Shown in pieces: positions 16,605 through 49,467 of a stretch of DNA of 64,000 nt; positions within the stretch are counted from its first letter, which is position 1, and each line of letters opens with the position of its first letter. Below the pieces are notes generated by a model. It worked only from the letters and a program-made list of their open reading frames with translations, did not search any database and was not told the DNA's origin. Source of the stretch: Eledone cirrhosa (Eukaryota); contig OZ024757.1 of assembly GCA_964016885.1 (NCBI GenBank), positions 12,276,001-12,340,000 on the forward strand. The letters are read 5' to 3'. The position numbers and the translations under genes were made by a program.

Positions 16605-16619
16605 CGTGCGGGTGTTCTT

Positions 16620-17759: not shown

Positions 17760-18279
17760 ATAAATAAGTAAATTAAATTAAATAAAATAAGATAAATAAA
17801 TACATACACAAGCACATAAACACACACTAGTCACCCAGCAGACAACACTATACACACTAGTCACACATCACACATCACACATAACACTATACACACACGC
17901 AAACGCATGCGCAAAGAAGACAAAATAAAATAAGATAAACAAACAAGCAAATAAATAAATAAATATATAGACAGACTGAACAAAAAAAAAATGGCGTAGA
18001 CATACAACACAACAGGAGGAACAATGAATATAACACCACTGACGATGTTGCAGATGTGCAACGAAAGATTTATGTAAACTATATATATATGTGTTTGTCT
18101 ATATTGTATCTGTATTATTTTTGACCGCCGGTCAGTCAATGGCAACATTGAGGACCGAGTAAGTTAGATCGCAGATATATATATATAAAAGACAGCGAGA
18201 AGCGAAAACCAACCAAACAGTGAGTGTGTTCTGTTATTAATTCTGGCAATATTACGCAAATATGACCCTCCCCAAATAT

Positions 18280-18698
<419 letters not shown>

Positions 18699-21600
18699 CT
18701 GTTGAGGGTCTTTGCCACAAGTGAAGTCAGTGAGATCCCCCGGTAGTTGTTGGTGTTAGAGAGATCTCCCTTCTTTGGCACTGGGACGATGTTACTGATC
18801 CTCCACTGATTCGGGGCAACTCCTTTCTCCAGTGCCCCGTTACAGAACCCCAGGATGATATCATCAAAATCACACTTCTTCATCACCTCTGATGCCACTC
18901 CATCTTCTCCATGAGCCTTGCCCTCCTTGATCTTCTTCTTGGCTCTCTGAAGCTCCTCTCTGGTGAATGGCTCTGTCTCAACATCCAGTTCGTCAAACAG
19001 CCGCCTGATCTCCCCAGTGCTCTGGGCTGTGGAGGGTGGCTCTCCTAGTAGGGTCCTAAAATGGTCTAGCCATTTCCTCTTCCTATCCTCCGGCCCCGTT
19101 CCCTGGATCTGACTCGAACACCTTTTCTTCCTCCCTGTGATCTCGTTGATGATCATCCAGCTCTCCTTACATCCAGATCTGTCAACCGCTCTCTCCACAC
19201 TTCTGATCTTCTCTATCAGTGCCTCCTCTCTGACCTCAGTGTAAGCGGTACAGAGCTCTTCCCTCATCACCTCCACAGTCTCCATCCTCTCCTCCGTAGG
19301 ATCAGCATAGAATTGGTCCCTGGCAGCTTTCAGGTGTTCTCTGGCTGCACACACTTTTGGGTTTGCAGAGCTGACGTGCTTCCCTTTGTTCTTTTTCCTC
19401 GGCACCAGGGTTTCACTTGCTTTCGCCACTGCATTGGTGAAGTGCCCGTACCTCCTCGTCACACTCTCCTCAGTCCATCCAATCTCTCTCTCCTCTGACA
19501 CAGAGCACTAAACCTGTTTCTCACTTCCACTGTGAACCTCTCCTGTAGCTTATCATCTTCCTTGAAAGCTCCCCAGTCATAGATTGTTCTCCGGGGCTGA
19601 GCCTTGCTCTTTCTTAAGCTCACGCGGACCTCACTCATAACAAGCCGGTGGTCACTACCCAGTGTACTGAAATAGCTGTATGGTTCCGTGTTCAGAACAC
19701 TATTCCGCCACTTTTTCCTCACCAGAATGAAATCAATCTGGGACTTGGACAGGTGCATATCTGAGATGTAGGTCCACATCTTCCCCAGATTCTTCCTAAA
19801 CCTTAGGTTGGTCGCCATCAAGTTCGCCTCCAGCAGGGTGTCTCTCAGTAGTCTTCCATTTCGGTTGGTGTTGTTATGGAAGTACCAGCAAGGATCTTCA
19901 CTGCCCTCCTTACTCGGATGTGCATTGAAGTCCCCCAAAATAAGCAGGATATTGTGTGCCTGAGTGGTGTTGACAGCTCTGCACACCTCCTCATGGAACT
20001 CCTCGGCATTCACATCACTGTCCCCCTAGGCTGAGATGACTGTCAGTCTTGGGTTTCCATTGAAGGTCACCCTCAACACTCGCGGGGAGATAGGCATTAT
20101 TTCCCTCACCAACAGATTGGTTTTTGCACTGAACACAAAACCCACTCCTCCTACTGCAGCATTTGTTGTGTTCTTCACTGCCGATGTAGTGATGAGCTGG
20201 CTCTTCCTCCCGATCATGACACTCCTCACGGGCTCATCGTGTAGAATCCTGTGTTCTTGGATCGCAAGTATCTGTATACCACTCTCCTCGAACAGATGTC
20301 CCAACTCCTCTCTCTTCTCCAGCGTTCGAATAGTCCTCACATTCAAAGTGCCCATTTTGATGGCTCTTCTGCAGGACAAAACTGCATTCTTTATATTTGT
20401 CTCAGAGACAGCTGATCCATCATCCACTGGCCCTCTCTGTGGCTCTAAGCCAGCAGAGTCATAACGACCAGGCTGCTCCTTGACAGTGTAATTAGGGGTT
20501 CTAACCCTAGTCTAACCCAGCCTGAGATGGAGAAGAAGCTCAGGGACAACCAGAACGGCTTCAGAGAGGGTAGATCAACCACCAGTCACATCCTGATGCT
20601 GAGGAGGATATTAGAGGGAGCTAGAGCAAAGTGCCTTCCTGCGGTCATGGTTTTCATTGACTTTAGCAAGGCCTTTGATTCTCTGGACCGTTACTGCCTG
20701 ATGAAGATCTTACAGGCTTATGGAATCCCTAAGAGGATAGTGGACCTGATATCACTGCTCTACACCAACACCAAAGCCCAAGTCATTACACCTGATGGGA
20801 TGACAGAGTTCTTTGAGATACTGGCTGGAGTGCTCCAGGGAGATACATTGGCTCCCTACCTTTTTATCATCGTAGTGGACTATTGTATGCGCCTTGCACT
20901 GGAGAAACACCAGGACTCTGGCTTTACTGTAGCACCGGCTCAGAGCAGGAGAGTTAGGGCGAAAAAGGTATCGGATGCTGAATTTGCCGACGACATAGTT
21001 TTGGTGACAAATACAGTGAAGGAGGCAGAGGATTTGATGCGGGAGGTTGAGACTGTGTCGATGAGTGTGGGGCTGAGAATGAATGAGACTAAAACAAAAT
21101 ATCTGGTAGAGAATGTTGAGAAGCCAGAGGGGATCACTAATGTAGGCGGGAAGCCGCTGGAATTGGTTGAGGACTTCCTGTATTTGGGAGCAAAGATTGG
21201 GAATACGGAAGATGATGTGGTTGAGAGGAAGAGCAAGGCCTGGGCGGCGTGTCACAGCTTGAGATCGGTGTGGAAGTCGGACCTTCGTAGAGACCTGAAA
21301 ATCCGCCTCTTCATTGCTGTAGTGGAGTCTGTGCTGCTGTATGGGTCTGAGACTTGGACACTGACCAAGAGACTCACTCAGCTGGTGGATGGGTGCTACA
21401 CGAGAATGCTGAGGATGGCTCTGAACATTAATCAGTATACACTGAGGATGAAAAACTCAGAGCTGTATGGGAGCATCCCAAAAGTCAGCTCAAAAGTGAC
21501 ACAGAGGAGACTGAGGTTGGCTGGACATGCTCACTGACATCCAGAGTTGACATTGCACTCAGTGCTCCTTTGGGAGCCCCTACATGGACACACTAGAAGA

Positions 21601-23339: not shown

Positions 23340-23666
23340 ATTATGGGGTTTGAGGGCGAGGTAAGTCCTACGCAATCGGTGTTTACATGCAGTTACCAGT
23401 TCATCTTTCTTGTTTAGGAGTTGGTCCGTCGAGAACAGCATTTGTAAAGTTTCCTCCGAGCATAAATTGCACGGACGGTGTCCTCCCGTGTAAGAGTTTG
23501 CTCTGGACAGTAAGCTCCAAGTGAGATCATAGGTAATATTGTTATCCTTGTGGTCCCATATGTGGCCCGAAAGTGTAGTGGCGTGACGCCGGGCCGGGTT
23601 TCGGAAGGTATGTCTGTGTTGGTATAGCGGGGTCTTGAAGTCACATGCGGTTAATCCTATATAGGT
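23340..23666 (-). pseudogene. GIY-YIG endonuclease C-terminal half (absent from ORF track, no start codon)
   Basis: Manual translation: TYIGLTACDFKT...HRHTFRN...TTLSGHIWD...WSLL...CNLCSEE...LLNKKDELVTACKHR, homologous to families A and C. Confidence 0.8.
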
Positions 23667-24396
23667 CTGGTCTCGGGACTCTGATTTATTATTTCGTGGT
23701 AGTTTCTTTAGTATTTTGGCCCCCCACTTGTTGACCCGTCACCGTAAGATATATTCGGTTGTTTACGTATACCTCTTAAAAGGGTCTCATTATAATTCCG
23801 TCCACCTAGTAAACCTTTCTTTAGTCTAGCAGTACCAGTGAGAGACTTGATAGCTGTTCTTAGGTTATAGTAACCAGAAATTGTTTTTTTCTTTACACTT
23901 AATTGTTTTTTAACACTCCCGGTATTTTTCTATATATTTACCCCATATTGTTTTACCTATTGTTTCGACTTCCTCCCCTCCCCCCTCCCCTAGTATCTTC
24001 TCTGACCTCCTGCCCAGCCGTAGTTGGCACTATCAACGCACGACTGGGTTTCTTCCACCCCTTCTCCCGTTTTCTTCTACTGGCAGTTTCAGTTACCCCT
24101 TCCGTCCACAAATTGCCATGATAGAATCATTATGTCTCAACAACAAACTTTTGACCAATCCTTGTGACAATCACTTTTACCATATATGGAATTACCCCCC
24201 GAGAAGCTCGGCTATTCAAATACCAGGATAAAAATGTTCACTTAGTCTCGAATTAGCCGTCGAAACGGCTTGAGCTCAGCCGTCGGGGTCCTACTCGTTC
24301 CTATTACCCACTCTACTACTCTAAGTATTGAGTACTTTGGTGTGTTATGGTCCACCTTGTTCCTTACCACATTTCCTTCGTTATATATATATATAT

Positions 24397-26949: not shown

Positions 26950-27895
26950 CATCATCATCATCAACATTTAACGTAGATCTTCCATGCTAGCATGGGTTAG
27001 ATGGTAATTGTCCCACTTGAGGCAAGATTGATCAGGTGACCTTGTCTTGCTGATATAGGACATCGGGAAGGTGGGTCTTCTGTATTACTGTGTGGCGCCA
27101 AAATCTCGATCCAGTGACATTGTCTTAGAGAGGTCTAAATATACAAGGTCAGATCATGTCGTCCCAGGTTTTTCTGGGGCTACCTACTCCGTAACTTCTA
27201 TCAATTTTGATCGCCCTGCACTTTGTTATACAGCTGTCATCTTTCATGTGCATCACATCACCATACCAACGTAGTCTTCTCTCAAGTAAACAGCATCTGA
27301 TTCCTCTAATCCTAATTTCTCACTTAGTTCGTTTATGTTTTACTGTTCATGTATATTACTATTAAACTTCCAACGGAGCATCCATGCTTCGTTCCTTTCC
27401 AATCTGGGCATGTCCTCTGCACACAATGCCCATGTCTCTATAGAACCATCTACATTCTTAGATAGCTTGCCTGTGATCCCACTACATCTTTTATGTACCC
27501 ATAGTTTGCATTTGGGGCATAGAATGGAATTTCTACCTACTCCTTTCCTACACACTGAGCATGGTCATTTCCCTGTGGGCACCTGTGCCCTATTTTCCTT
27601 TCTACGTACCAGAACTTTAGTCTTAGATAAGTTATCTTTAAGGTCTTTTGATTCTAGGCCATGCTTCCATGTTTGGAATTTGTTCTCTAGTTCAGCCATA
27701 GATTCATCTAAGAGAGTTAGATAATTTGCATATAGAAGTTCCCATGGGCAGCCAGTCTTAAACCCCTCTGTTATAGCCTGAAGGGAAATAACAATCAGGA
27801 GGGGGCTAAGGACGGAGCTTTGATGAACACTTACTTTTATGCTAAATTCTTCAGTTAATATTTACTGTTAATATTAACCTTGCTGACTGTTCCTT
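26950..27895 (-). mobile_element. Decayed RTE LINE (RT C-terminal part)
   Basis: CRKGVGRNSILCPKCKLWVHKRCSG, ETWAL, MLRW, and PWELLYA-like remnants. Confidence 0.75.
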
Positions 27896-28424: not shown

Positions 28425-29615
28425 TATTTTGTTGACCTTCAGAAGGCATATGACTACGTTCCTTGGCCACCTGCTGTGGTAGGCTGTGCAGGAGTATGTG
28501 ATTGATAGTCAACTTCTTGCTGCCCTGATGTCTCTATATCAATGCCTGAGTATCTATGTTGGGATAAATGGTCTTAAATCGAAACCATTCAATGTGGGAG
28601 TTGGACTCCACCAAGGGTGTATACTGTCAACTCTCCTGTTTGTTATTTACATGAACAAGATTGATATACGCAGCTGGGTTGGAAGTGGTATCATGACTGG
28701 CGGCTGTGAAATCACTTGGCTGGAATTTGATGATGACATGGTGTTATTTAACTCGACAGAAGATGATATTTGACCTGCACTTGATAGGTTTGTTGCCGAG
28801 TGCTGCATGGCTGGAATGAAAATCAGTACTGTGAAAACTGAGACACTTGTCCTCTCATGGAAGCCAGTGCAGTGTACTCTACATGTGAATGGAGTTCCAC
28901 TGAAGCAGGTATAGAAGTTCAAGTATCTTGGGGCCATGTTCACGAGCGATGGTAGGAAGGAGGCTGAATTAAGTGTAAGAATTACAAAGGCTGGTACAGT
29001 AATATGCCAGCTTCATTAATCAGGAGGTAGGAAGAAGTAAAAGCCAAACTCACTGTTTCAATTCGACATTCATGCCAACCCTTACCTAGGGTCATGAATC
29101 ATGGATAATGACCAAAAAAATACAATCGTGAATGGGGTTCCTCCGAAGGGTCTTTGTAGTATTGTTACTCGATAGAGTGTGTAGCTCAGAGATCAGAAAG
29201 TCACTCCGAGTAGAGCTGCTACTTCTCTGAATTGAGAGATCACAGCTCCGATACTATAGGCATGGGGCTAGAATGGGATACTTCCGAAGGGTCTTTTGAA
29301 TAACGTTACTCGATAAAGTGCATAGCTTAGAGATCAGTTATTGCAGGTAGAGCAACTACTTCTCTGAATTGAGAGATCACAGCGTCAATATTCTGGGCAT
29401 GAGGTTAGAATGTCTCAGGAAAGAATCGCTGGACAGATGTTATGGGTAAAACAACCAGCAAAAGACCCAGGGGTAGATCCCGAATAAGACGTGCTTGGGC
29501 ATGCAGCTGGATCAGTTGGAGATGGTTGCTTCTGACAGGACCCACTGGAAGGAGAGTTTGAGGACTCTACATCCTGACCCTATCAGGAATAAGTGGGCAA
29601 AGAAGAAAACAGATG
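28425..29615 (+). mobile_element. Decayed RTE LINE RT fragment
   Basis: FVDLQKAYD, GLHQGCILS.LLFVIYM, FDDDMV, FKYLG remnants. Confidence 0.8.
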
Positions 29616-29814
29616 AAATGGTAAAATATCATTACGTAATGGAGTTGTGAAACAAAAACTATATTCTAAAAGACACTTAAAACATTTTAAAGATTAAAAT
29701 ACTAAAACTTCATAAATATATTTTATACTCATGAGAATTTCAAAGCCACACCACCTAAACTTGTGTTGATTAGCTGCCTTGGCTTACAAATGGGGTTTAT
29801 AATATATATATTCT

Positions 29815-30680
29815 TCTTTGCTGATATTTTCCTGGGAGGGGGGCAGTGCGGGCAGATTTCTCAAGTACTCCTTTCAATGGGTCCTGTCAGAAGCAACTAT
29901 CTCCAACTGATCCAGCTGAATGCCCAAGTGAAACCAGCCAAGCTCATGGATGTTATCCAACCATCTTGCTCAGGGTCTACCCCAGGTACTACTGATGGTT
30001 GGCTTTGCTCATAAAATTTTTTCAGCAATTCTTTCCTGAGACATTCTAACCTCATGTCTGTAGTATCAGAGTTGAGATCTCACAATTCGGAGAAGTAGCG
30101 GCTCTACCTGGAGTGACTCTCTGATCTCCGTGTTACTCATTCTATTGAGTAACATTGCTCCAAAGACCCTTCAAAGGATCCCCATTTCAGCCAATAGTAT
30201 TTGCAATCATATTCTTTCGATCATTAAACAAGATTCATGACGATAGTTAAGGGTTGGCACCTAAACAAATTGAAGATATCGAGTTCAGCTTTCACACATA
30301 CCTCCTTTCTTCTAATCACCAAATGCTGAATCTGACACGTTACTGCACCAGTTCCTGTAATTCTTACACTAAATTCAGCCTCCTACCTTCCATCACTCAT
30401 GAACATATCTCTGAGATACTTGAACTCTTCCACCTGCTTCAGTGTAACTCTATTCTCTTGTGGAGTGCACTAAACAGGCTTCCTTGAGAGGATGAGTGTC
30501 TCAGTCTTTGCATCACTGATTTTCATTCCTGCCGTGCAGCACTTGGCATCAAATCTGTCAAATGCATATCAGAGATCACCTTCTCTTGAGTTAAGTAGTA
30601 CGATGACGTCTGCAAAATCAGCCGACTGATCTTACACTCACCAGTCTTGATACCTCTTCCAACTTGGCTGTGCATGAGCC
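29815..30680 (-). mobile_element. Decayed RTE LINE, same family as 28425-29615, opposite orientation
   Basis: Reverse-complement similarity to 28670-29600. Confidence 0.7.
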
Positions 30681-33600
30681 CATAATTATTTGTTGATCTG
30701 AAGTTGGATTCCAGCTTAACCCCAAATATTTTCCGTGTCTTAATTTTAGACACCTGACTGTCGTCTCTGCTGTGACTTTTCATGCCTGCTTGTCCTGCAA
30801 GTGCAAGAAGAAGGACTTATTTCCAAGCCACCGTCTTTGTTTGAATGGCATGTGTGACCACTTGAGCACCAAGGGGTGCTCCAAGTTGGCAATACTTCTT
30901 ATATATATTCATTGGCAATACTTATATTCTGTGTAACTACATTTTCTCACTAGGACTGTCTTCATACAATACATGTAATATCATATTTTTCTCGTTAACA
31001 TTTATTTTTAGTGATTATTCTCATTGTTGGTCATATTTGCCAAATAAACAGCTGGATTTAATATATTTAGAGAAAATGATGTTTTCTTATTAATCCATTT
31101 ATTCGAAAAACTAATATTTTCACAAAACTAATCAATATTTCTTTTTCCTATATTTCATTTTAGATTTGGTAAATTTATCTGAAAATCTTGAAATTGTGAA
31201 GGTGTTTGGAATTACATTCATACACATAACACATATACACACACACATATATATACATATATATAACCAGTTGTAGAAGTAGAGAAAAACAATGGAGGCT
31301 GCAGAAATAGATATTGTAGAAGACCAAATTATAAGTACACAGTTACCCCAAGTAGCATATGACAGGGATGATTTGGTGATTCCACTACAAAAGACTATTA
31401 GTGAAAATAAATCTAAGGTAAAAGTGTTAACTGAAATCCCCTTGAAGAAAGATATCACAGTACCATGCCAAATATTATATAAACCTGTTCCTCCAGTAGT
31501 AAACACTGTAAAAGTTACTGTAGAAGACACTGTAGAAGATTACCCTCTACCATTAAAATATATTGTACCTATAATGAATGGTACTATGAGCTATATCCCA
31601 CGTATATTAACACTAAAGTACACACCACCAACTGGCTGTTGTCGTATGGTACTCTGTCAATCAGTGGTCACTGATATCGATAGGTTTAACCAAAATGTGG
31701 TAATTGCCACATTACCATTTGACAATCAAATTCTGTTCTTCTCACCCTCTAGTGTTGCAATAAAAACTCTTGAAGTCGGCTTTCATAAAATTTCATATTA
31801 TAAAGATAGTAGATTCCTAGGTTTTAAATTATTAGAAAAAAAAATATATATGGTAAATTGGATTGAAAAAACATATACTGAGCAATTTGAGGTGAAACAT
31901 GAGCCGAGAAGTATAGCCATAGGGCCAGACGATCGTGTTTTAGTAATATTTTATAATTTAACCGTTATAATCTGTTATGATCTGAATGGTCATAAATTAT
32001 TTCAATTTCACCTCCATTCTAAGGACATTCCTGCTGACATCACCGTTTTCAGGAATTATTTTTATGTATTTCAAGGGCAGGTTATTTATAAGATCTCCTC
32101 AATAGGTGGCATCTCTCAAAAGGATATTGGGATAAACACTCAACATATTACATTTGACTTAAATAATATGTTTGTATCTGATGTTTCTGGTCAGATATAT
32201 TGTTTTAAGACAAAAAGGTTTTGGCCAAAGATGTCTTATTATCAAAAGACCCAAACACCCTGCCTGAATGACAAAATTAATATAGAGTACCCTAACAAGA
32301 TATGTGAGATTCTGCCTATGTCACGATCTTCTGTATTAGTTGTATACAGGGATCTGAAAGCTATACTATACACTTACAGTGGGACAGAATTGTGTAGAGG
32401 TAAGGAATTAATATTTAAGTCCAAACCATCTAGATTTTGCAGAATAGACTCCAGCAAATTTCTGGTTCTATTCAATAAAACTAGAACTATACAACATATT
32501 ACATGTCCTGAACTAAAAGAAGGTAATCGCTATTGTTTAGATAAGAATTACATTCAAATATGTCATGTAGTATTAGATAGGTTTATGGCTTTGACCACTT
32601 GTGGAATGAATGAGGTCCATAAATTAAAGATTGAGGAAGACAAGGTAGAATGTGAAATACTAAAGTCATTAGAACATGGTGATGTCAGTATAGCTACAAC
32701 TCCAACTTATTTTGTTATTTTAGATAAGAAATATCGTAAATTAATATTTCATTCTAGTTTCGGTGAAGAAGAACTTTTCGAAACATATTTTGATTTTAAC
32801 AGCCGTCCCTATCATATCTACTCAGACACTTTTTACTTGTATGTTGTCTTCCCTACACTCTCTATTATGGCATGTTATGATATTTATGGAGAATATAAAT
32901 GGAAATTAAAACTTCCGGTAGCTTCTCGCTTTTGTAATGGTATTTGTGAAGGAACTATATATCTATTTGACCATAACCTAGGGAGTATTCTTGTTTACAA
33001 TTGTGAATCATCCATTTGTCATTTAAAAAAGTTAAATCCTTATATCAGAAATCCAACGATACGACACAAAGAAAAGGATGATAATAAAATTGCGATTGCT
33101 GAAACATGTTATCTACCCAACGGACAGTTGGTGGTGTCTGACATAAATAATTCTTGCTTATTATACATTTCTAAGAAAGAAGGAGAAGAAATAAAAGTGC
33201 TATCTACATTATATCTGCCATCTGTAGCTACAGATATATGTAGATGGGGTTCTAGTCAATTGGCTGTCACATTACCCATAGAGAAAGAATTAAGGCTTAT
33301 TGGAAACCTATCAAAAACAGTTAGAATGATATCATTAAACCACCCTTATGTACAGATACGGAAGTTTTGTGAGGGTAGAATTGTTGGTTATTGTGACAAC
33401 AAACCAAACTATATAGACATTGTATCTGTTCAAAAACATAACCAGGGTGAAGTAATGTCTAGGGTCCCTATTCCATGTCAAATAAACTCATTAGCAATAG
33501 ACAATGATACATTAAATATATTTATGGTGGCTAAGAAAAAAAATATTTATGTACGAAACTATATCAAAAAAGGGTCAACGAGGTATTTTAAGTGGTCCCA

Positions 33601-35756
33601 GCCCTATTTCGGAGCCCAACTTTAAACCACTTTCTGATCTATATGGTGGATGTATTGATAACACTTGTCATTATCTGATAGACAAATATGGTGTGTTGGC
33701 TATAAATAGACATAACTCTGTGATGGTAGATCTGGTGACAAGGAAACAGTCTAACATGTTTATTGACATGGTAGATGTATTTTCTAGAAACATGTGTTAG
33801 TGAAATGTTTTCTTCTACATTATATCTGCAGGATCTGACAGTTTCTGATAAAGCTAAGAAATGTTCACCTCCTCCTTGTTTGGAATACACAGAACCAGTG
33901 GGTTGTTATGGTGGTCGTGGTCGTGGTCGTTATGGTGAGAAGGAGAAGAAGTGTTTGGTTGTTGTTACTGAAAATAACCTGATTGCATTATATGACGACA
34001 ATAACAACAACATTAAAATATTAACATTTGATGGTCAAATTGTTGACTTTATCAAATTAAATAACAATCTCCCTAAACATATATGTCGTTGGGGGTCAAA
34101 CACACTGGTCATTACCACTGATACTGACAAGCTGTTAACTTTAGAAGTGGAGTTTCCATTGTATTTGGTAAGTTATAAGACAGACCATAGCTATTATGGT
34201 ATAGCTTCTTTGTTAGACAACCAACTAGTGTGTAGTAGTGTAGAGAGATATAGATATATATATAGAGGTAGAGATAGATATATAGGTAGACATAGATTGT
34301 TTGTCATTGATATTGATGAAATACATTCAACTGTGGATGTAAAGAAAGAAATAAACATACCTGAGTTCATCAAAGACATAGAATATAGATATGATAGAAA
34401 TCCCACCTCTGATATTGTAGTTAATGTTAAGAATGATATTATATTTCACAATAGTAGATATATCACTTTCTTCAGATATAAAACTGGTTATTTACATTCA
34501 CACAGACAATATTATTATGACACACCACCAAACACCTGTATAACAACAGATGACAATTATGTGTACATTTATGGACAGTGGAGATTATATAACTACTACA
34601 ATGATGACAGAGATTCCCAGATTGTTTGTTTGTCACAGACTGGTAAATACAGGGAAATAATTTTAAATAAAAGAAATTATAGACATCACATATATTTCAC
34701 CAGTATTAACTGTAAAGGTCCAAGGTTTGTTGGATATGACTGGAAGAGAAAGTGTTTATATGTTGAAGGTTTATATGAACTTAATAGGGAAACATTCCCT
34801 GTTTGTCGTGTAAAAACAGACCAAAGCTCTAGTGAAATAAACGATATGGATATCACTGATGATGGACAAGCAGTTGTCTATGAAATAACCAATTATGGTA
34901 ACGTTAAAATATTTCAGAGAGATGGGGAACTGTTATGTCACAGAAATTTTGAAACTTTAGTTGGTGGGGTCTGTTTTACAGAAGAAGGAGGATTTATTAT
35001 GGTTACACTGCCTAATGAATATCAATTAATTCAACTAAAGAAGGAAGATTTGACAGAATATCATGTTTGGTCCAGTTCTCTACCTTATGGTGTTATATCG
35101 AGGATAAAAGAAAATATTTACTTCTGTCGACATATCAACTTGACAGAATATCATATGATAAAGATTGATGACAACAAACTGAATGTTCTGGGACATGGGA
35201 CATTACATCTGGATTATCATCTGCCTCAAGCAAGATGTACTACTACTACTTCAGCTGAAATAATTAACAATTTACTAGAGGTGAGACGTGGTAATTACAA
35301 GGCAGAGTGTATCTCAGGAAATGATGAAATATCAGTGAGATTTTTACCACATGTTATGAACATATCTTATATTTCCTATCCCATGTATTCTGATATATCT
35401 AAATATACTGAGAGATGTCAGGTTTATGATGAGGAATATTTTAAGGAATATCAGAGGGACATGATCAACTACAGTAAACTAATTATGTTACATGACAATG
35501 TGGCAGTGTTCATGTTGAGGAATATTCTCACAGTAACAACAACAGAAGGTAAAATAATCCATGGCAAAATATTACCAGAAACACCAATAGACATTTGCAG
35601 ATGGTCAGATAATTGTTTTATTCTCCTTTACTATCATAAAATGGTGATTTACAGAGAAAATATTTCTCACATTAAAAAGGTGAAACTTGAGAAATACTAC
35701 AACCATATCTATAAAAAGAATGGCAACCAACTTGTGTGTAGTTGATGGTGTTAGAC

Positions 35757-36002
35757 ATATGTTTAAATATAACAGTGAGGTATATGGTGGTGATGATGAT
35801 GATATGTTTAAATATAACAGTGAGGTACATGGTGGTGATGGTGGTGGTATGTTTAAATATAACAGTGAGGTATATGGTGGTGGTGGTATATTTAAATATA
35901 ACAGTGAGGTATATGGTGGTGGTGGTGGTGGTATGTTTAAATATAACAGTGAGGTATATGGTGATGGTGGTGGTGGTGTTGGTGGTAGTATGTTTAAATA
36001 TG
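35757..36002 (+). repeat. Coding minisatellite ATGTTTAAATATAACAGTGAGGTATAT(GGT)n (MFKYNSEVYG-rich), 5 copies plus a partial
   Basis: Direct read. Spacers vary in whole codons. Confidence 0.9.
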
Positions 36003-36084
36003 ACCCTGGGGACTCTCCTTATGTAGATATAGTTGATATCTACAGTGGAACAGTGAAATACAGTGTTGAAGTGTCTGTTAGAGA

Positions 36085-36470
36085 CGAGGAGAAGGTGGAG
36101 GAGTTGAGGAGGGTGGTGGGGGAGTTGTTGAGGGTGGTGGAGGAGAGGAGGAGGGTGGAGGAGGAGAGGGAGAAGGTGGAGGGGGAGTTGGGGAGGGTGG
36201 AGGGTGAGATGGAGAGGTTGAGGAGGGACAATGAGAAGATGAAGGAGGTCCATGACAGGTTAAAGAAGGACTATGACAGGTTAAAGAAGGAGGATGACAG
36301 GTTAAAGAAGGAGGTAGACAGGTGAAAGAAGGAGGTAGACAGGTTAAAGAAGGAGGTAGATAGGTTAGAGGAGGAGGAAGACAGGTTAAAGAAGGAGGTA
36401 GACAGGTTAAAGAAGGAGGTAGACAAGTTAAAGAAGGAGGTAGACAGGTTAGAGAAGGAGGGAGACATGT
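36085..36470 (+). repeat. 21-bp coding repeat (heptad coiled coil, DRLKKEV)
   Basis: GACAGGTTAAAGAAGGAGGTA units. One unit has TTA>TGA. Confidence 0.9.
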
Positions 36471-36906
36471 TAGAGCAGGAGGTAGTGTGGGCGGAGAGAG
36501 TCTCAGCAGTTGGTGTCACATCAAGTGAAGACATTGTTGTTGTCAAGTTAGAGAAGAGGTGGTGGGGGTCGCACACTTATATCTGTTGGTACAGAGAAGA
36601 ACAGTTAGTCAGGACATTAGAAACACCACAACTACCACATAATATATATAACAGACTATATCTCACAACACATAGTCAAAATATTTATATATCACCACCA
36701 CCAGACAATAGAGACCCTACCAATATCTACCAAGTATCTGTAGACAGTAACCTCCAAGTAATTCTCAGTGAAGAAGATTCTGGAGTTTACTTCGTTAATG
36801 GCCTCCAAATCTCTGACAAGTTTATCACAGTTTTTGGACATCTTGCACAGAGGAACATTTTGTTTTCTTTCAATATGAGAGATAAATATTTTCATACTTT
36901 ACACAC

Positions 36907-36909: not shown

Positions 36910-36941
<32 letters not shown>

Positions 36942-37700
36942 GGTTGTGGTGGTGGTGGCGGTGGTGGTGGTGGTGGTGGTGGTGGTGGTGGTGTGGTGGT
37001 GATGATGGTGGTGGTGGTAGTGGTGGTGGTGGTGTGGTGGTGTGGTGGTGATGGTGGTGGTGTTGTTGTTGATGGTGGTGGTGGTGTTAGTGTTGGTGGT
37101 GGTGGTGTTGTTGGTGGTGGTGTGGTGGTGGTGGTGTTGTTGGTGGTGGTGGTGTTGTTGTTGGTGGTGTTGTTGTTGGTGGTGGTGTTGTTGGTGGTGT
37201 GGTGGTGTTGTTGGTGGTGTGGTGGTGTTGGTGGTGATGGTGGTAGTGGTGGTGGTGGTGATGGTGGTGGTGTTGTTGTTGGTGGTGGTGGTGTTGGTGT
37301 TGGTGGTGTTGTTGTTGGTGATGGTGGTGGTGGGGTTTTATTTTTGGTGGTGGTGTTGTTGTTATTCCAGTTGTTGTTGTTGTTCCAGTTGTTGTTATTC
37401 CAGTTGTTGTTGTTGTTATTCCAGTTGTTGTTGTTGTTATTCCAGTTGTTGTTGTTGTTATTCCAGTTGTTTTTGTTGTTCCAGTTGTTGTTATTCCAGT
37501 TGTTGTTATTCCGGTGTTGTTGTTGTTGTTCCAGTTGTTATTCCAGTTGTTGTTGTTATTCCAGTTGTTGTTATTCCAGTTGTTGTTGTTATTCCAGTTG
37601 TTGTTGTTGTTATTCCAGTTGTTGTTATTCCAGTTGTTGTTGTTATTCCAGTTGTTGTTGTTATTCCAGTTGTTGTTGTTTTATTCCAGTTGTTGTTGTC
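36907..37700. repeat. (GGT)n/(GTT)n array, then TTCCA(GTT)nA minisatellite
   Basis: Direct read. Confidence 0.95.
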
Positions 37701-38149
37701 TTGTCTCTAAAAACTACTCAAGGTAGAAATCAGACAATAAAATCGAGACTTAATCATTATAAGACAGTCAGTGAAATATATCCATCACAGATAAGTGTAC
37801 ATTAAGATATATCAAAGGTTAAGACTACAGACAATCTACACTGAATGTAAGATTACAGAATTCGTTGAGAATCTAATTAAATTTAATAAAAAATTAAACC
37901 AAAGTCGCTGATAAAGATCGATATATTTCCCTCCTATGTCTTCTCCACCAAATCAGAATATATTTCACCAGATAACAGCGAAATTAGGTATTTTGGGACA
38001 GATCGTCAGTGAGGGGATTTCAAATTACCTTATCTCACTCAATACACGGTTGAAAGTGGACAAACTCATGTATATATATATTTATATATTTATATATATA
38101 CATATATGTGTGTGTGTGTGTATATGTATATATATTGTTATATATGTTT

Positions 38150-40706
38150 CTTCCTAAGGCACTACGGTAGTGCCTTAGGAAGAAACAACACCCCAGACAC
38201 TAAAAACAAAAATAGAAGAAGAAATAATACATTTTTCAACCCTCCTTTCAACCTAAATGTCTCCACCAACATACCTAGGGCTTTCTTCTCACTACTAGAT
38301 AAAAACTTCCCTCTAGGACACAAGTACCACAACCTTTTAAACAAAAACACTATTAAAATATCATACTCTACGACGCCTAACTTAGCATACCACATAGCTA
38401 GCAGCAATAAAAGTAAAATTAATTCTTACTTCCAACAAACGAAATCACAACAGGAGGTAAACCTTCTAAATACCTATGTAGCAAGCGACCAAAGTAACGG
38501 CAGTAACAATAGAAATAACACTAGTATAAGAAATAGAACCGGGGTCGACAACCCGAATGTCCAAAATCCTATAGCTACCACCCAGACTTCTGCAATGCAT
38601 TATAACCAGCAGACTAACACACAGGATAATTGTAACTGTAGAGCTAATAGAACCTGCCCTTTAGATAAAAAATGCCTAACCAAGGATATCATATACTCTT
38701 GCACCGTCACAACTAGTAACTCTTCAGAAACCTATGTAGGCTCCACTTCTAACTGCTTCAAAATCAGATATAATTCGCACATCCACTCGTTCAAGAAGCA
38801 CAGTCTAGCCAACTCCACCTCACTATCTAGCTACATACACTATCTAAAAACTAAAAATAAACCTTACACACTCAAATGGGAAGTGATAGGTAGCGCGACT
38901 TCGTACAAACCACCTAATAAATTTTGTAACCTCTGTATACTAGAGACCCACAATATTATCTTCTCTAACCGTAACCTACTTAACAAAAAATCTGAAGTGT
39001 TTGCAACTTGCCAGCACCGCTTCAGACATTCCTTCCAAAACTTTAAGCCCAATATATAGCAATGTCGGACTTGAACCAAACACCAGGGGCACACCTTATA
39101 CCACATACCCAACACTAACTGATCAAATATAACACAAACAGCGACATCCCTCTAGAACCCTTCGCAGGGGAATACCCATTTGTACCTCTACTTTAGGTGT
39201 GACAACATCCACCCACTTGAACTGCACTACACCGCTCTATAGGTAATTTAAGCATGAATTGATTGTCTTGTTAGTGTTGTGCGGAGGAAGTGCCATCGTT
39301 GGACAGATGAAAAACCAATTAATCTAGTAACGCTGATGAGCAGTATGACCGGTACGCTGAGTGCAGGAAATGAATGTATTGCAAGTGGCGTATGGGTTGT
39401 ACATATATGGATGATTTGATGGTCAGATTGGGGTCATGAGGACTGCGGATTGACCTTTGGTCGGCCCTGGTGATGATTATCTTTCGACATCCAATGTAGC
39501 AAGCGATGACCCAGAACTTACCAGAGATCATTGTGTGTTGAAGTGATTCTGCGCCTGGTCCTTTGAGTAGACTACAACCACAGAGATCATTAATTTAGAA
39601 TCCTCGCTCGTCGTCTATAATATTCATTTGTGGAACTCTACGATGGGGGTTAATCACCATAATAATACGAACACCTTCAGCACAACTTAATAGACTACTC
39701 TATAGTTAAAACACTTTAAATTTTAGAATTTTTTTAGAAATTGCGCATAACCATAGAAGTTAGGGTCTATTTTGAAACACATTTCAATAGTTAGTAATGG
39801 AAACCTCGGAGTTATCTCCCCTCATGCATTAACTCCCCTTAGCCACACACACACTTCCGGGTAGTATTTCGATGTCGATTCTCGAAACGTAACATCCTCC
39901 TGTATTGAACTAAAGAACATCAGACTACGATTCTCTAACTGGATTGTCAAACGCTCAATATCGAATCGTCGTGGATTATGTGAGGGGCATATAATCTGAA
40001 AAATACACTCCCCAGACTATGAAAATGTCGAAGTACATGAAGTCCATATCATCCCTTCGCTGCGCATTTCCAATATTTTTAATATTTTTAATGCTTGCAC
40101 TATTTTTAATGCTTATATTATTTCTCCACACATAGACTATAACAATCATATAAAGAATTTGTCACCAGATCAACCAACCTAACACTCTTGTTTACCTACT
40201 TAAGTGCTTCTACTACACGTAACTCTCTGCCACACTATATAAACAAGACGCACGTGCTTGCCACACATATAACCTTTGCACTTTATAACCGCTTATTTTC
40301 ATGTTGTATTTTAACCCGTATTTTTGATTGTATCTTTTAATATGAATGTAATCTCTAAGTGTGTACTGCCACTCTAAATGCTGTAATGAATGTTGACCTA
40401 CAATATTTGCATATGTATCTGTATGTCTCTTGGGTGAAAAGGAGGTCATATAAGTGTTCATTCATTAATAAATTGATCCGAAGAATCCAAACCTCGGTTT
40501 GGAGGAAACAGTTGTAAGCATAAACATGTTTTGAACAGTTCTTTGATTCTTATTTTTCATATAACTGCTCTGTAAATCATCTGATGTTTTTACATTGAGC
40601 TACTTAACTTACTGGTAATAAGGTAGTAATATATTACTGCCTACCACTATTTAGGGTTTGTATAAAAATATATATAACTGCAAAAGGTTTTTGTATTTAC
40701 ATAACC
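38150..40706 (+). mobile_element. PLE family A, 5'-truncated single copy with long 3' UTR, hammerhead (40474-40520) and tail
   Basis: Colinear with 11233-14425 and ends at the same tail terminus into (TA)n. Confidence 0.9.
38157..39059 (+). CDS. PLE ORF C-terminus (linker and GIY-YIG endonuclease), 5'-truncated
   Basis: FFNPPF, CNCR..CPL..CL, IIY..YVGST, CNLC.LE, LLN. The first codons of the track ORF are microsatellite. Confidence 0.85.
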   Translation, partial: RHYGSALGRNNTPDTKNKNRRRNNTFFNPPFNLNVSTNIPRAFFSLLDKNFPLGHKYHNLLNKNTIKISYSTTPNLAYHIASSNKSKINSYFQQTKSQQEVNLLNTYVASDQSNGSNNRNNTSIRNRTGVDNPNVQNPIATTQTSAMHYNQQTNTQDNCNCRANRTCPLDKKCLTKDIIYSCTVTTSNSSETYVGSTSNCFKIRYNSHIHSFKKHSLANSTSLSSYIHYLKTKNKPYTLKWEVIGSATSYKPPNKFCNLCILETHNIIFSNRNLLNKKSEVFATCQHRFRHSFQNFKPNI

Positions 40707-40737
40707 ATAAATAGTATAATTAATACTATATATATAC

Positions 40738-40770
<33 letters not shown>

Positions 40771-40789
40771 CATATGTAGAGAGAGGCAT

Positions 40790-40822
<33 letters not shown>

Positions 40823-40927
40823 CATACACATATATACACATATATACATACATGTACACATAAACACATACAGACACATACACACATATACATACATATA
40901 CACATACATATATCTATATATATATAT

Positions 40928-40959
<32 letters not shown>

Positions 40960-41237
40960 ATACATACACATACACATATATACATACATATATATATATA
41001 TACATATATACATACATCTACATACATACATACATATACACATACAGAAACATACACATATGTGCACACATATATACATATATGCACATACATACACACA
41101 CACACATATATATAGGTACATACATATACATACACACACACATAAACATATATATCTATCTATATATATATATATATCTATATATATATATACACACATA
41201 TATATATACAAACATACACATACATATACATATACCT

Positions 41238-41474: not shown

Positions 41475-42767
41475 TAATTCATTTTTTCGTGTTCAGTAGT
41501 GGTTTAAATTTTTCAATGAAGAATTCTTCTTTATATCTGCGGAAATGTTCGTTATCCGACCATATCTTGAAGAGAGGGAAGATTGTGAATTTTCCCTTCC
41601 CGCATGATGCAAAGTGTGCGCTACATGTGGTATTTCTGACTGTGGGGTCTTTAATTTGTTGTTTATGTACCCGGACTCTATCATGTAATCCCGTTCCGGT
41701 TTCCCCAATGTAATACTCTTTACACTGTGGACATGTTGCGCGATATATTAGGTTTTTCGTTTTGCAGTTCATGTTAGCATTGACCTTGAAATTATCATGG
41801 TTTTTGAAGGTTTGCCCTCTTCGATGAGTTCACAGGTTCCACATCTAGGGTCCCCGCATTTCGTCACTTGCATTGATTCTATGTTGGTCGTAAATTTTGC
41901 CTTGGTAATTAGTTTTTTAAGGTTGGGTGCTTGGCGTCTGCTATAAATTATCTGTGTGTTTTTTAAGAGTGCATTCATTTTGGTAGATTGCTGTAGAATC
42001 GGGAAATACTGCTTAGCAGTTTTCTCAATGTTGATGTTCCCTGGGTTGTGAGTGATGACAAAAGAGATAGCAGGGTTTTCTTTTTTATGTTGTGGGTTTG
42101 GTTTTCTCAGTGTTGTTATTGGGATGTTCTTAGCCTTGGAGATGGCTGCGTTGATGAGTTTCATCGGGTATTCTTGTTTTTTAAGGAATTTTTTCAGGTC
42201 ACATAATCTTTTTTCTTGTAGTACGGGGTGTGTTGCTATAGTGCAGATGCGCCTTGCCATGTTGAAGGGAATGTTCCTTTTCGTATGTGAGGGGTGTGCT
42301 GACCGGAAATTTAAGTATTGGTGTGTGTCAGTGGGTTTGCAAAATAGGTCCGTTATGATATTTTCCCCTTCTTTAATGATGAGGATATCTAGAAAGGGCA
42401 GTTCCTTTTCGTTACATTCCATAGTGAATTGTATAGCTTCATGAAGCCTGTTTAGGATCGAATAAAATGTTTGTAGGTCTGTTTGGCTTCTGTTCCAGAA
42501 GATGAAGCAGTCATCTAGGTAACGTTTCCAGTTTTTATTAATGTAGAAGGCGAAGTCGTGACTGAATGTTATCTATAGTTGGGAATATAATTTTGCCTCT
42601 AAGTGACCCATAACGAGCGTTGCATATGTAGGGGCCACTTTGGTACCCATGGCTGTTCCTTTTATTTGTAGATAAATTTCGTTGTCAAAGAGGAAGTGGT
42701 TGTTTTCCAATACTAATTTAAGTCCTTCCAAGATGAATTATTTGGGGAATCTTTCTGAAATGTGAAG
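41475..42767 (-). mobile_element. Disrupted PLE (Neptune-like): RT and GIY-YIG
   Basis: GTAMGT, RYLDD, LPFLD, KPTDTHQYL..S.HP, CGDPRCGTC, LIY..CPQC..YIGET. Internal stops and a frameshift at about 41770-41810. Clade call is tentative. Confidence 0.85.
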
Positions 42768-45705: not shown

Positions 45706-47399
45706 AAGTTATATTTAAAATTGTTGGGTTACAACTAGTAAATATTTATAACTGATATAAAAGCACTCGACAAATATTTGGAGTATATTTACAATATTAA
45801 ATAAATGGAAAACTATATTTATAAAACCATATTTATTTCATTATATATATTTCGGGGATATCATATTAACAATATGCTATGCCTTCATCAGACAAAATAC
45901 AATATAAACAGTTTTATAGATAAATATATTCGACATACCGTAATAAACATCAACTTCATTTGAAGAGGTTTACGCTAGCAGTGAAAATACAGAGAGAAAG
46001 AAAGAGAGAAAGAAAAGAGGGAAAAAAGAAAGAAAGAAAGACAAAACGAAGAAAAGGAAGAAAAAGAAGAAAAAGAAAAAGAAGAAATGCATGGGACAAA
46101 ATAGAGAGATGGAAAAATAGATAAAGCGAAGAGCTTCATGTAAAGAGACAGAAAGATATATATATATATAGAGAGAGAGGAAATAGAGATAGATACATAT
46201 ATATAGAGAGAAAATTAGGTAGTGGGAGGTCATTTTGAGTAAGTGTATCAATGATACATTTATTTATTTATTTATTTATTTATTAATTTATTTAGCTCAA
46301 GTATTAATGTAAGGGAGATATATAGAGAGATATAGAGAGATATAGAGAGAGAAAAAAAAATTTAAAAATAGCCAGACATATTCGAGGCGTAGAAAACCCT
46401 ATGTTTTAATGTATTAGTATTTATAAAACTTACACTATATTGTAAATATCAGTATTCCTGAATGAAACAAGTATTCACAATGTGTGAAAATTCATTATCT
46501 TATGTTTAGTTTTAAAAAATTCATATGTTTATGTGACAGCTACAAACATCAATGTGAATCCAACTGATTCACTCTGCAAACTCTAAATTACCGGAAAACA
46601 TTCTCAATGTGGTATAAAAATTTGAGCGTATTATTATTCTTGCGATTACTCTACAAGATTATCTATCAAGCAGAAATAGAGAGCAGATTTCAATATACTA
46701 ATCGAAAATATATATTATATAATATATTATATTATAAACAAAGATAACAATAATAATAATAATAAGTAAAAATATATAAAAATATAGAATAGAAAACTAA
46801 AAAAATATTACGAAAGAATATTACATAATAAAAATATTGCATATTAAAAATACTACGTATTAAAAAATATTACGTATTAAAAATTTACATATAAAAATAT
46901 TAAAAATAAAATAAAAAATAAAAATATTATAGAATACTACAATACTAAAAGAATAAAAATAAAAATAAAAATAAAAATAAAAATAAAAATAAAAATAAAA
47001 ATAAAAATAAAAATAAAAATGAAAATAAAAATAAACCACAAAGAACAACCCTTCAAAGTTAATTGACAATATATTGCCAAGTTCATTAGACGACAAAGCC
47101 AAAAATTATCTATCAAATCACATCTAGCAAAGAATATCGCAAAAAGATTATGATGTCCAATAATGTCTACATATGTTCCTATATTTAATATAGAAGTTTA
47201 TCTAGTGTAAGGTTAATTCAAAAAATTTGGAGCATCGGCTTTTAGGGTAGCTTAATTTTTCATGAGGAATGTTTAGATAAAAGTAAAAATAAATAAAATA
47301 AAATAAACAATAAAAAGAGTAAAAAGAGGGAATCAAAGATTTAGGAATCAAAAGATTTATCGGCTAGTTCTCATATAAATATAAATCAAACTAAATATA

Positions 47400-49467
47400 C
47401 TACATTTTAAATTTAAATTTATATTTAAACGTTGAGTTTAATCTATGTTTGCAACAACTGAATAAATTTGTCCGTAGGTTAAGGGAATTTTTAGATTTTA
47501 GTATAAAGAATATCTCCTCTGCGCAGAGGTCACATGTCTCAGAGGATGAATTAAAAGGAATCCCTCTTGAGACTATATTCCAAGCCGTCGAATATCTAAC
47601 GTTATCTAGCTTAAGTTGCCAGAGTACCCCTGATAGTGCCGTTGAAGATTTTTTATTTGGATCTGTGAAAGAATTCTTGTGGTTATTATAGCGAAGTTTA
47701 AATTCCGTCGATGTGGAACCGACGTAGTTAAAAGAATTAGAGTCAGTATTAACATTACAATTGTATACTATATTTTTAACTAAGCAGTTGTTATTTAACG
47801 GACATTTATATCTATCTCTACAGTTACATTTGTTAACTTGTATATTATTTATGCTATTATCAGTAGGTTTTAAGTTCCTATTATTTATTCTATTAATATT
47901 TTGTGCTAAATTTTTGGTGGATGAGTAGGTTAATTTAATTGTATGCCTATTGAAGATTGAGTGATACCTATGTGTTCTAGGGAAGCGATTATCAAGAGCT
48001 TTGAAAAATAATTTAGCGATGTGGGTTTTAATGTTTAGTGAGCAAGGGGGGGGCAAACCAAATTATGTTCCTAGTTCTATTTCTTTTTTGTCCTTTGGAA
48101 TTATTGTAATGCTTTCTATTATAGTTGTTAATGTTGTTGCCGTAATTAAAAAAGTTGTTACTTTGTTTAGTTTGTCTATCATTATCTATGTACACAATCT
48201 TATCAGCATACCCTGCCCTAGCTAGTGCATCATTATAGTATTGGGCCTTTTCGTCAAAAATCTTTCTATTCGACGAAATCCTAGAGATACGTTTTTGGAC
48301 TGAGTTTACTATAGTGTTTTTGACAGATCTGAGGTGGTTAGAGTTAAAGTTGACATAGTTTAAGTTTTCATTCAACTTGTGAAAAGGATAGTGGAGACAT
48401 GTGTTGAGATTTAATGTTATATCTAGGAAATTGACTATTCTATGGTTGTTCTCAATTTCTATTTTAAGGTTAAAGTAATTAAAAAATTTTGTAATTTGTT
48501 TACATTTTCTATTTAGTTCAGGGTTATTATTATTAATAAGTAAAAGCATGTCATCCCTATATAAACCTCCGGTAGTACCAGGTATTTTCCTATGTAGCGA
48601 ATTGATTAAAAATAAGCCCACAAGGTCAGTTACCTGAGCTGAGTCGGAAGATCCCATAGTTATGTCAAATTTGCTATCTCTATCTGCTCTGGTCCATAAT
48701 TTGTCATTAAATTCTATCAAAGTTTTCCTAGCCGATAATATAATATGCATTTCTTTGCTAGTTAGGTCCGTATGTTTGAATGCGTAATTTAGTGCCTTAT
48801 TTAGTAGACTAGGGGTAATAGAAGAATAATAGTTAGCTATATCAAGTTGAATAAACCTATTATTATTGTCATATTTAATTTGCCTAAACCACTCAACAAC
48901 CTCTCCAGTTCCCTTCCACAAGCTCAGGTTAGATACACAATCCAAGTTCTTAATTTGCAGTATCACCCTGTCAAGAATGTTTTTGCTTAATTTGCCCAGG
49001 TCCGATTTTGAAGGTGCGATCAATCTAACTGGCAGGTCATTTTCAAAATTCCTCTTGTGGTCCTTCATATTGATCTTCGGTTTCCTGGGCACGAAAGTTT
49101 GTGTTCTGTTCTCAATTTCCAACTCATGCATTATACAAGATGCTTCAACATTCATTTTCTCAAGTTCGGCCTTATCTGCTACCTTGTATTTTTTTCCTCA
49201 GCTCTTTCAGTATGAGGCCATTATACATGTCTTTCCGCACTCCATAGAGGTTGTTGGTCTTGTCAGATTTCACCAAGATCTTCTCAGTTTTCTCTAAGCT
49301 CTCAATGTTATCCTTAATGTCTTTCAGATATTCCTGGCCTTTAAAGTTTCTCTTGAATTTGACCCCTTGTATGATAGAAATTATATCGTTTTCAAAGTCA
49401 GATAAAAGTTTGTTAGGGGGTGGATTTCTTTTAGATTTGAAAACTTTGTTTAAGTCCGAGATATTTT
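47400..49467 (-). pseudogene. PLE RT and GIY-YIG ORF, left arm, frameshifted at about 48050 and about 49165
   Basis: KSDKT, KDHK, RLI.P, DI.NYY.SI, MGS, YRDD, NFLD, IVY..YVG. C8 run versus C7 in the right arm. Confidence 0.88.

Follow-up and report, generated by a model that had tools for sequence, protein, structure and literature searches.

A damaged copy of an apparently undescribed octopod family of NHL-type multi-propeller proteins in Eledone cirrhosa

The window analyzed here is a stretch of 64,000 nucleotides from Eledone cirrhosa (assembly GCA_964016885.1, contig OZ024757.1, positions 12,276,001 to 12,340,000), and our subject is a coding-like locus on its forward strand, at positions 31292-36905. 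It holds a damaged copy of a real, apparently undescribed octopod family of the NHL-propeller kind. To judge from the sequences compared, the members of this family are octopod, cytosolic proteins of around 1,800 aa (~1,700-1,900 aa), encoded by a single coding exon and built from tandem NHL-type propellers. These propellers are numbered P1 to P6 below, and the copy at the locus is called the window copy.

The locus and its propeller-like units

The coding-like signal starts at an ATG in the context ACAATGG. The window copy has probably a single coding exon, and an upstream exon, if any, is probably 5′ untranslated region because stops lie in the frame of the open reading frame (ORF) between a putative splice acceptor and this ATG. 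An earlier note, made from the letters of the window, had described continuous coding-like sequence; this claim was not borne out, the signal being broken by three frameshifts, a TGA and a terminal stop that is out of frame. The longest open pieces encode 777 aa (31292-33625) and 656 aa (33775-35745), and there are also a short bridging piece and two distal pieces. By tblastn, homologues align collinearly over 31406-36895, with switches of frame near 33540, 33795 and 35740. The features of the locus are the following, with those predicted by AlphaFold2 marked AF2.

31138-31163 (+): probable splice acceptor, a polypyrimidine tract and AG, proposed from the sequence
31292-31498 (+): ATG and N-terminal segment of low confidence (predicted local distance difference test, pLDDT, <50 for model residues 1-19); sequence, AF2
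31499-32219 (+): propeller 1, six blades (24 strands); AF2
32249-33005 (+): propeller 2, six blades; AF2
33050-33835 (+): propeller 3, putatively six blades, spanning frameshifts 1 and 2; first 15 strands by AF2, the rest by homology
33536-33543 (+): frameshift 1, in a run of 8 A; tblastn, and contigs of 4/4 sequencing runs one base shorter
33792-33797 (+): frameshift 2, in a TG repeat; tblastn, and contigs of 4/4 runs two bases longer
33847-34771 (+): propeller 4, six blades, with long Tyr/Arg/Asp-rich top-face loops; AF2
34795-35353 (+): unit 5, 16 strands making four blades; AF2, hhalign to propeller 4 94%
35365-36880 (+): propeller 6, putatively six blades, broken by frameshift 3 and a TGA; first 10 strands by AF2, the rest by eye from homology
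35740-35743 (+): frameshift 3; tblastn, and a loose contig end two letters longer in runs X1 and X3 (one sample)
35758-35977 (+): 45-bp tandem repeat, in frame, about 5 x MFKYNSEVYGGG; sequence
36086-36485 (+): 21-bp tandem repeats, in frame, encoding DRLKKEV, coiled-coil-like, purine-rich; sequence
36323-36325 (+): premature TGA within a 21-bp repeat unit; sequence
36875-36885 (+): homologous C-terminus, with a TAA at 36883-36885 that is 2 nt out of frame behind a GA repeat; sequence, homologues

The last frame runs past this TAA into a TGG microsatellite (36926-37333) and ends at 37051; the 12 homologues compared end at, or at most 2 residues from, the position matching ~36880. Both repeat expansions of the window copy sit in top-face loops of propeller 6: the 45-bp repeat enlarges one loop to 93 aa and the 21-bp repeats another to 144 aa, whereas these loops measure 14-39 aa and 8-19 aa, respectively, in the 12 homologues compared. 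These inserts were ruled out as introns, being 62-80% purine, without a pyrimidine tract and made of units in frame.

Two pieces of the locus, A and C, were modelled by AlphaFold2 from 33 sequences (pLDDT 79) and 35 sequences (pLDDT 70), respectively. The models are almost pure beta structure in four-stranded blades, with 24, 24, 15 (of an inferred 24), 24, 16 and 10 (of an inferred 24) strands in the successive units. Together with profile comparison they predict six tandem units with 6-6-6-6-4-6 blades, unit 5 being modelled as an incomplete or four-bladed propeller that is nearly invariant among close paralogues. The earlier note had proposed six recurring units, and six propeller-like units related by profile comparison were indeed found. 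The six motifs it quoted are all present on the forward strand (PSRFCRID at 32426, LPNGQLVVSD at 33113, ATDICRWG at 33227, PKHICRWG at 34072, ITDDGQAVVY at 34852, PIDICRWS at 35584). In the unit-unit comparison, 4 of the 15 pairs scored a probability of 94-97% (P3-P6, P4-P6, P2-P4, P4-P5; 96.7% by hhalign for propeller 6 with propeller 3), a fifth scored 90% and 5 stayed below 11%. Internal duplication from one NHL-type propeller would be the simplest account of this pattern.

Structural fold searches, which mainly covered propellers 1, 2 and 4 and barely the three others, brought NHL domains to the top. Propeller 1 matched those of PknD (Z 20.5, root-mean-square deviation (rmsd) 3.2, 234 aligned) and TRIM2 (Z 19.7, rmsd 3.0, 239 aligned), and Brat gave the best match for propeller 2 (Z 21.2, rmsd 3.4, 249 aligned) and for propeller 4 (Z 21.1, rmsd 4.0, 255 aligned, 48,161 chains). 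For propeller 4, TRIM-NHL domains took five of the six top rows; the enzyme EupfF draws level with a score of 20.6, and at rank 50 the score is still 16.8. Foldseek on the multi-domain models returned generic multi-propeller matches only. By sequence, propeller 3 is the most NHL-like and is conserved among paralogues; its Pfam NHL match (E 0.005, score 17.3) lies below the curated cut-off of 20, and no Pfam family matched the propellers at the curated cut-offs in five window pieces and 22 proteins. A sequence-profile search placed TRIM71 and Brat on top without significance (E 0.065-0.19). In the ESM Atlas, clusters of mollusc NHL proteins were reached at 0.90-0.91 (0.91 for paralogue P0024; NHL in 24-32% of members; 169 shared features), 0.91 being attained by 4-10% of shuffled proteins. 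Thus the NHL/TolB-like propellers of the earlier note are borne out by the fold, by the weak Pfam match and, as a lead, by the Atlas clusters; AlphaFold predicts propeller folds, and the locus is not a fragment of a well-characterized conserved gene. Pfam thus hardly sees the family, and this would account for its being overlooked in surveys based on domains.

No RING, B-box, signal peptide or transmembrane (TM) segment was detected by regular expressions and hydropathy in the window copy and 33 homologues, and the same claim of the earlier note stands for these 34 sequences. The hydropathy maxima (1.3-2.2) coincide with beta-strands, and the N-terminus is not hydrophobic. Pfam gave no match to NACHT, NB-ARC, death-fold or TRADD-N domains, nor to EGF, in the five window pieces or 22 proteins scanned. 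Many homologues present a conserved, helical-looking segment of ~85 aa before the propellers (e.g., residues ~60-150 of P0011), of several sequence classes. It matched no Pfam family, its best Atlas score was 0.81, and a profile of the segment run against the window in six frames found none in the window copy.

These features set the family apart from the propeller systems known to us. TRIM-NHL proteins (Brat, Mei-P26, TRIM2/3, TRIM71/LIN-41, NHL-2) are cytosolic and share the six-bladed NHL propeller, which is best or tied-best for propellers 1, 2 and 4 (Z 19.7-21.2). However, they carry one NHL domain behind a RING/B-box/coiled-coil, whereas the octopod family has six tandem units without RING or B-box, seems to have no conserved basic top face and comprises tens of fast-changing copies. 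Structurally, the family resembles a multiplied TRIM-NHL substrate/ligand module, but it is not to be classed as a TRIM, as it has neither the RING nor the B-box. Expanded molluscan B-box or TRIM2-3-like proteins carry a C-terminal six-bladed TolB-like propeller. A kinship in sequence is possible: propeller 3 matches P0060 (E 9e-5), a protein of 169 aa that shows this blade pattern, and mollusc NHL clusters appear in the Atlas; a follow-up search with P0060 among longer proteins returned nothing (461 candidates). PMC8382680 counts a B-box orthogroup among the expansions of bivalves. These proteins differ in having a single propeller and a B-box, against six units and no B-box in the octopod family.

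A parallel without homology is given by the DED-TRADD-N-WD40 expansions of amphioxus and oyster, with lineage-specific growth and variable, recombining propellers (PMC8195603); in amphioxus, the variable propellers of the TRADD-N expansions are read there as invader-binding modules. Unlike the octopod family, in which none was detected, these proteins and the STAND sensors combine seven-bladed WD40 repeats with a death-fold, TRADD-N or NTPase domain. The fungal HET-E is a WD40-type STAND sensor. Several propellers per chain also occur in LRP2/LRP4, teneurin, IFT-A, UTP and DDB1 proteins, which fill the Foldseek lists. Their identity is 7-11% and their TM-scores 0.16-0.35, and they are either highly conserved, seven-bladed proteins or extracellular ones with EGF spacers. 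A chain of six NHL-type propellers in which two faces vary and the frame stays constant could be matched to no solved structure. A viral or transposable element (TE) origin was ruled out: no relative was found in IMG/VR, BFVD matches were generic (6-14% identity) and no TE-protein matched in the locus.

An octopod family and the state of the window copy

A search with piece C returned 46 proteins of 1,164-2,526 aa, 34-46% identical (4,758 candidates), all of them uncharacterized proteins of Octopus vulgaris, O. sinensis, O. bimaculoides or Argonauta hians. Exactly 23 of the 46 lie on one O. vulgaris contig of 29.19 Mb. Cluster look-ups raised the number of gene models on this contig to 41, of which 30 fall within 143 consecutive accession numbers (assuming that accession order follows position), and many are short, at 150-500 aa. 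Piece A, compared with 1.84 billion representatives, gave 20 matches (14 named octopod, 2 unnamed, 4 without look-up). The window copy shows collinear similarity over all six units to the octopod family (e.g., LOC106868082, LOC128250759, LOC118767965), with 30-61% identity per unit to the cluster-type homologues of Octopus. Every named homologue is octopod, and signal peptides and TM segments are missing from all of them, which supports the lineage-specific, cytosolic protein suggested earlier. The label "unknown family" was half right: the family is unnamed, but many members exist in the databases.

A small number of copies, those of the P0050 and P0034 groups, lie scattered and have been conserved across the three Octopus species. 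P0050, P0061, P0062 and P0076 represent one single copy that evolves slowly and sits on the largest chromosome-scale contigs of these species, and P0050 has an unnamed orthologue 86% identical; this single copy is a candidate founder of the family. A search with P0050 returned only itself and this orthologue (4,223 candidates) and missed known relatives at 31%, so it says little on squid, cuttlefish or nautilus. An absence of the family from squid and nautilus would be tentative. A tree was built from 33 homologues (1,550-2,150 aa) and the window copy, with the P0050 group as root; in it, 15 copies from O. vulgaris make up a single recent burst. The window copy is nested (support 0.97-1.0) on a long branch with P0034, P0022 and P0075, which suggests that it has no close counterpart among annotated octopod proteins.

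No description of an octopod six-propeller family was found in the literature, subscription papers and bioRxiv supplements being outside our reach. Six LOC identifiers of the family appeared in no main text searched, nor in the supplements of PMC9712504 (3 files) and PMC13230822 (1 file). The octopod expansions treated in PMC9795677 are those of protocadherins, C2H2 zinc fingers and GPCRs. PMC13230822 calls the immunity of octopuses poorly understood.

The lesions of the window copy were compared with contigs from four runs (at most 3 samples, two studies, two organisms), 97-99% identical on long pieces. This comparison spans 31280-35757 and so frameshifts 1-3; the TGA at 36323 and the terminal shift lie outside. 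Frameshifts 1 and 2 are absent from the contigs of all four runs, and frameshift 3 from those of two (X1 and X3, one sample). Further indels of the main contigs, of 9 and 3 bases, preserve the frame, and one minor contig has a 4-base gap. Near-identical counterparts of the window copy keep an open frame across the first 4.4 kb. Also, X1 and X3 differ at two letters at 33792; two TAG codons stand in the ORF frame at 31272-31282, directly before the ATG, the second of which is lacking in X1 and X3; and minor low-depth contigs skip 18-206 bases and look like diverged paralogues.

We regard the window copy as probably a young pseudogene or a recently disabled (null) allele. It may instead be intact in the animal, the five lesions being consensus errors of the assembly, which we consider a serious possibility, if short of a probable one. 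All four indels lie in homopolymer or dinucleotide runs, where both slippage and long-read error would produce them, and young inverted-repeat arms in the window also show indels in such runs. The contigs without frameshifts 1 and 2, or without frameshift 3, also speak for assembly errors, as does propeller 6, whose identity to ten homologues is 37-55% after the TGA vs 31-56% before it. On the other hand, the five lesions fall within 5.6 kb and include a TGA created by a base substitution, the runs concerned are short, and several TE ORFs of 1-1.5 kb in the same window are open. Moreover, in strongly conserved columns (at least 22 of 33 homologues with one of the two residues) the deviant residue is in the window copy four times and in the relative once; over all 30 changed sites, 9 are window-derived, 12 relative-derived and 9 unclear. 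Among the codon changes against near-identical contigs, 30 of 39 are non-synonymous, vs 79.5% expected without selection, giving a ratio of ~0.86 (40 of the 140 substitutions listed). Broken or mis-assembled, and without the N-terminal helical segment, the window copy is a poor representative of the family.

RNA editing is known in cephalopods. Differences of the A>G type outnumber T>C by 29:6 in X1, 31:6 in X3 and 28:8 in X4 (p<=0.003 after base correction), and stand at 3:2 in the DNA-like X5. This excess would fit A-to-I editing of a forward-strand transcript and is a hint of transcription. Against editing, X1, X3 and X4 come from one study, their library types are not on record, and alleles can mimic editing.

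Variation of the top faces and its possible meaning

The top face of NHL domains is the ligand-binding surface and is built by the b-c and d-a loops according to PMC4015489; loops were labelled top by this rule. In a close set of 16 copies whose P5 is >90% identical to that of P0009 (15 from O. vulgaris, 1 from O. bimaculoides), top loops of P4 differ at 45.6% of positions vs 11.1% for bottom loops, and those of P6 at 31.0% vs 19.0%. The values are 24.2% vs 24.6% in P1, 11.9% vs 14.5% in P2, 7.0% vs 16.8% in P3 and 4.7% vs 8.6% in P5. At the level of loops, P4 alone is significant (p<0.0001; p 0.058 for P6). Conversion tracts cannot explain the contrast because top and bottom loops alternate every ~10 residues. 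Thus, of the six propellers, only P4 and, more weakly, P6 concentrate variation on the top face.

Mean identity over 87 paralogue pairs, chosen by a P3 identity >85% that favours P3 and leaves P5 free of selection, was 81, 92, 92, 75, 96 and 78% for P1 to P6. P1 occurs in two classes ~65% alike that assort independently of P4 and P6, and the copies are therefore mosaics. For example, P0009 and P0029 are 94-95% identical in P1, P3 and P5, 57% in P4 and 62% in P6. Within other species, an Argonauta pair differs at 21/109 top vs 1/45 bottom positions of P4, with 0/33 for the P3 top and 1/75 for the P5 top, and an O. sinensis pair at 14/91 vs 0/44 in P4. In five between-species pairs pooled, P4 gives 106/437 (24.3%) vs 12/218 (5.5%), P6 15.3% vs 10.6% (not significant, p 0.12), and P5 is reversed. 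Clustering, fragments, mosaic paralogues and face-specific variation bear out the fast-evolving family suggested in the earlier note.

From these sequences, we lean slightly towards a birth-and-death family of cytosolic, diversifying binders that would probably be defensive. What computation yields directly is the six-unit architecture, the restriction of named homologues to octopods, clustering with many fragments, mosaics, and top-face variation of P4 and more weakly P6. Such variation is what one would expect from a diversifying intracellular sensor. The high non-synonymous share against the near-identical contigs also speaks for this view, and the variable propellers of amphioxus have been interpreted similarly (PMC8195603). 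P4 and P6 would be variable ligand-binding faces whose targets keep changing; these would most likely be proteins from intracellular pathogens or from selfish elements. P2, P3 and P5 would form a constant scaffold that couples the captured target to an unchanging partner of the host, perhaps a ubiquitin ligase working in trans, and the family would turn over by birth and death with recombination between copies.

The faces could also vary by drift, in a structural or scaffolding protein whose exposed loops are unconstrained and whose remainder is homogenized by gene conversion. The single conserved copy diverges evenly over all faces, as drift would have it, and the top loops of P4 and P6 are long and accept repeat expansions, as in the window copy. 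However, the top loops of unit 5 are just as long in total (88 vs 89 aligned positions on average) yet differ at only 4.7%, and near-identical pairs change almost only on the P4/P6 top faces, other exposed loops staying constant. We consider drift unlikely.

Composition bears on the nature of the ligand. Tyr makes up 7-8% of the top loops of P4 and P6 vs 2-4% on other tops, and the net charge of top loops flips sign between paralogues (P4 -26 to +11, median -1; P6 median -5; a crude count, loops only). The family might comprise multivalent RNA-binding regulators like Brat, Mei-P26 and TRIM71, each paralogue reading other RNAs (host mRNA, transposon or viral) by its top faces. The best matches of propeller 4 (five of six TRIM-NHL NHL domains) and the lead of Brat for propeller 2 fit this proposal, and so do the P4 top loops of the window copy (Tyr 13%, Arg/Lys 20%, net +6). 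The top faces of TRIM-NHL proteins are electropositive (PMC4015489), whereas here the charge flips between paralogues, and the 6 conserved P4 top positions, in a crude loop count, hold no Arg and no aromatic except one His. RNA regulators are rated as improbable.

Some gene models hint at neighbouring families. In three O. vulgaris models on two contigs (P0059, P0064, P0074), a MIB2-like ankyrin-RING piece is joined to a family member at a DDHYMQIP junction; P0016 and P0055 of O. vulgaris join a family member to C2H2 arrays, and P0025 to a TE-like protein. The ankyrin-RING fusions are probably chimeric models of neighbours, because O. sinensis models of the same cluster start otherwise and other models fuse zinc fingers or TE proteins. 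They suggest that ankyrin-RING, zinc-finger and propeller families adjoin. No ankyrin-RING exon, zinc-finger exon or second family member was found within the window.

The zinc-finger adjacency suggested by these models would also suit an arms race within the genome or between individuals, that is, germline defence against selfish elements, meiotic drive, or self/non-self recognition, which predicts the same clustering and face-specific variation. The proteins are without signal and TM segments, which speaks against cell-surface recognition, and we give such conflict a small chance. Returning to the defensive binders that we favour, a more specific proposal, put forward tentatively, is that octopods evolved a germline-encoded intracellular receptor repertoire from an NHL propeller. 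A constant scaffold (P2, P3, P5) would bear two hypervariable Tyr-rich faces (P4, P6), and these faces would be reshuffled among tens of clustered copies, possibly handing targets to neighbouring ankyrin-RING ligases, as a split, multiplied analogue of TRIM restriction factors. If it is a true sensor repertoire, the family is a defined, testable candidate for octopus recognition of intracellular invaders, its variable faces being already mapped.

Several observations weigh against defensive, diversifying binders. A clear P4 excess is seen in only 6 of 14 close pairs, the Argonauta and O. sinensis pairs above being among the 6 and two of the 6 sharing P0014. It is weak or absent in the conserved copy (top 5/84 vs bottom 1/42), weak in the sister clade of the window copy (P0022/P0075 8/79 vs 2/44, P0034/P0078 16/102 vs 4/44), and the P6 excess is significant in neither set (p 0.058; p 0.12). 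Between the window copy and X1, P4 is not the most changed (3/306 and 7/271 bases, vs 24/621 in unit 5). Weakly constrained long loops and alignment error in indel-rich loops inflate the contrast, and the high non-synonymous share rests on 40 of 140 sites and would be the same in a decaying pseudogene. Also, in the models the NHL domains lead other six-bladed folds narrowly, by only ~1 Z unit; the core protein is without an effector domain; and the RING-fused gene models are likely chimeras.

The surrounding window

Repeats cover 13.6% of 31292-36905, all of them tandem repeats, vs 69.8% of the sequence outside, as scored with the window's own TE proteins, self-hits and Tandem Repeats Finder, and no TE-protein match was found inside the locus. 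The TE-free island in a TE-rich window seen in the earlier note is therefore real; it is simply the coding exon. Repeats begin again ~630 bp upstream (30042-30663), and a Penelope-like ORF lies ~1.1 kb downstream. No second host gene was found: Pfam scans of 18 and 112 other ORFs gave reverse transcriptase, endonuclease, GIY-YIG and one PHD fragment.

Penelope-like elements make up the most conspicuous structures. A near-perfect palindrome of 4 kb at 14588-18657 consists of two tail-out Penelope-like ORF copies (15525-16640, reverse; 16518-17759, forward) with GIY-YIG-like ends, and its arms show 0 mismatches and 1 T-run indel across ~1.36 kb. Another Penelope-like element forms an inverted pair at 45784-52410, with 2.94-kb arms 99% identical (11 mismatches, 5 indels), where one G-run indel breaks the left ORF. 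More Penelope-like GIY-YIG pieces lie at 38013-41233, 10642-14927, 41482-42572 and 23343-23693, the 3′ end of the element at 38013 occurring again as an inverted pair at 10642-14927.

Fragments of LINE-type (long interspersed element) reverse transcriptase and endonuclease were located at 18164-21537, 28483-30663, 55100-56571 and 60472-61309. A PHD-finger fragment at 27343-27564 (reverse) is perhaps a piece of a retroelement ORF1, and a weak tRNA match at 63236-63293 (reverse, 30.5 bits) may be the head of a short interspersed element. Finally, two hairpins of 300-400 bp stand around TA microsatellites, at 1076-1375 and 9940-10343.

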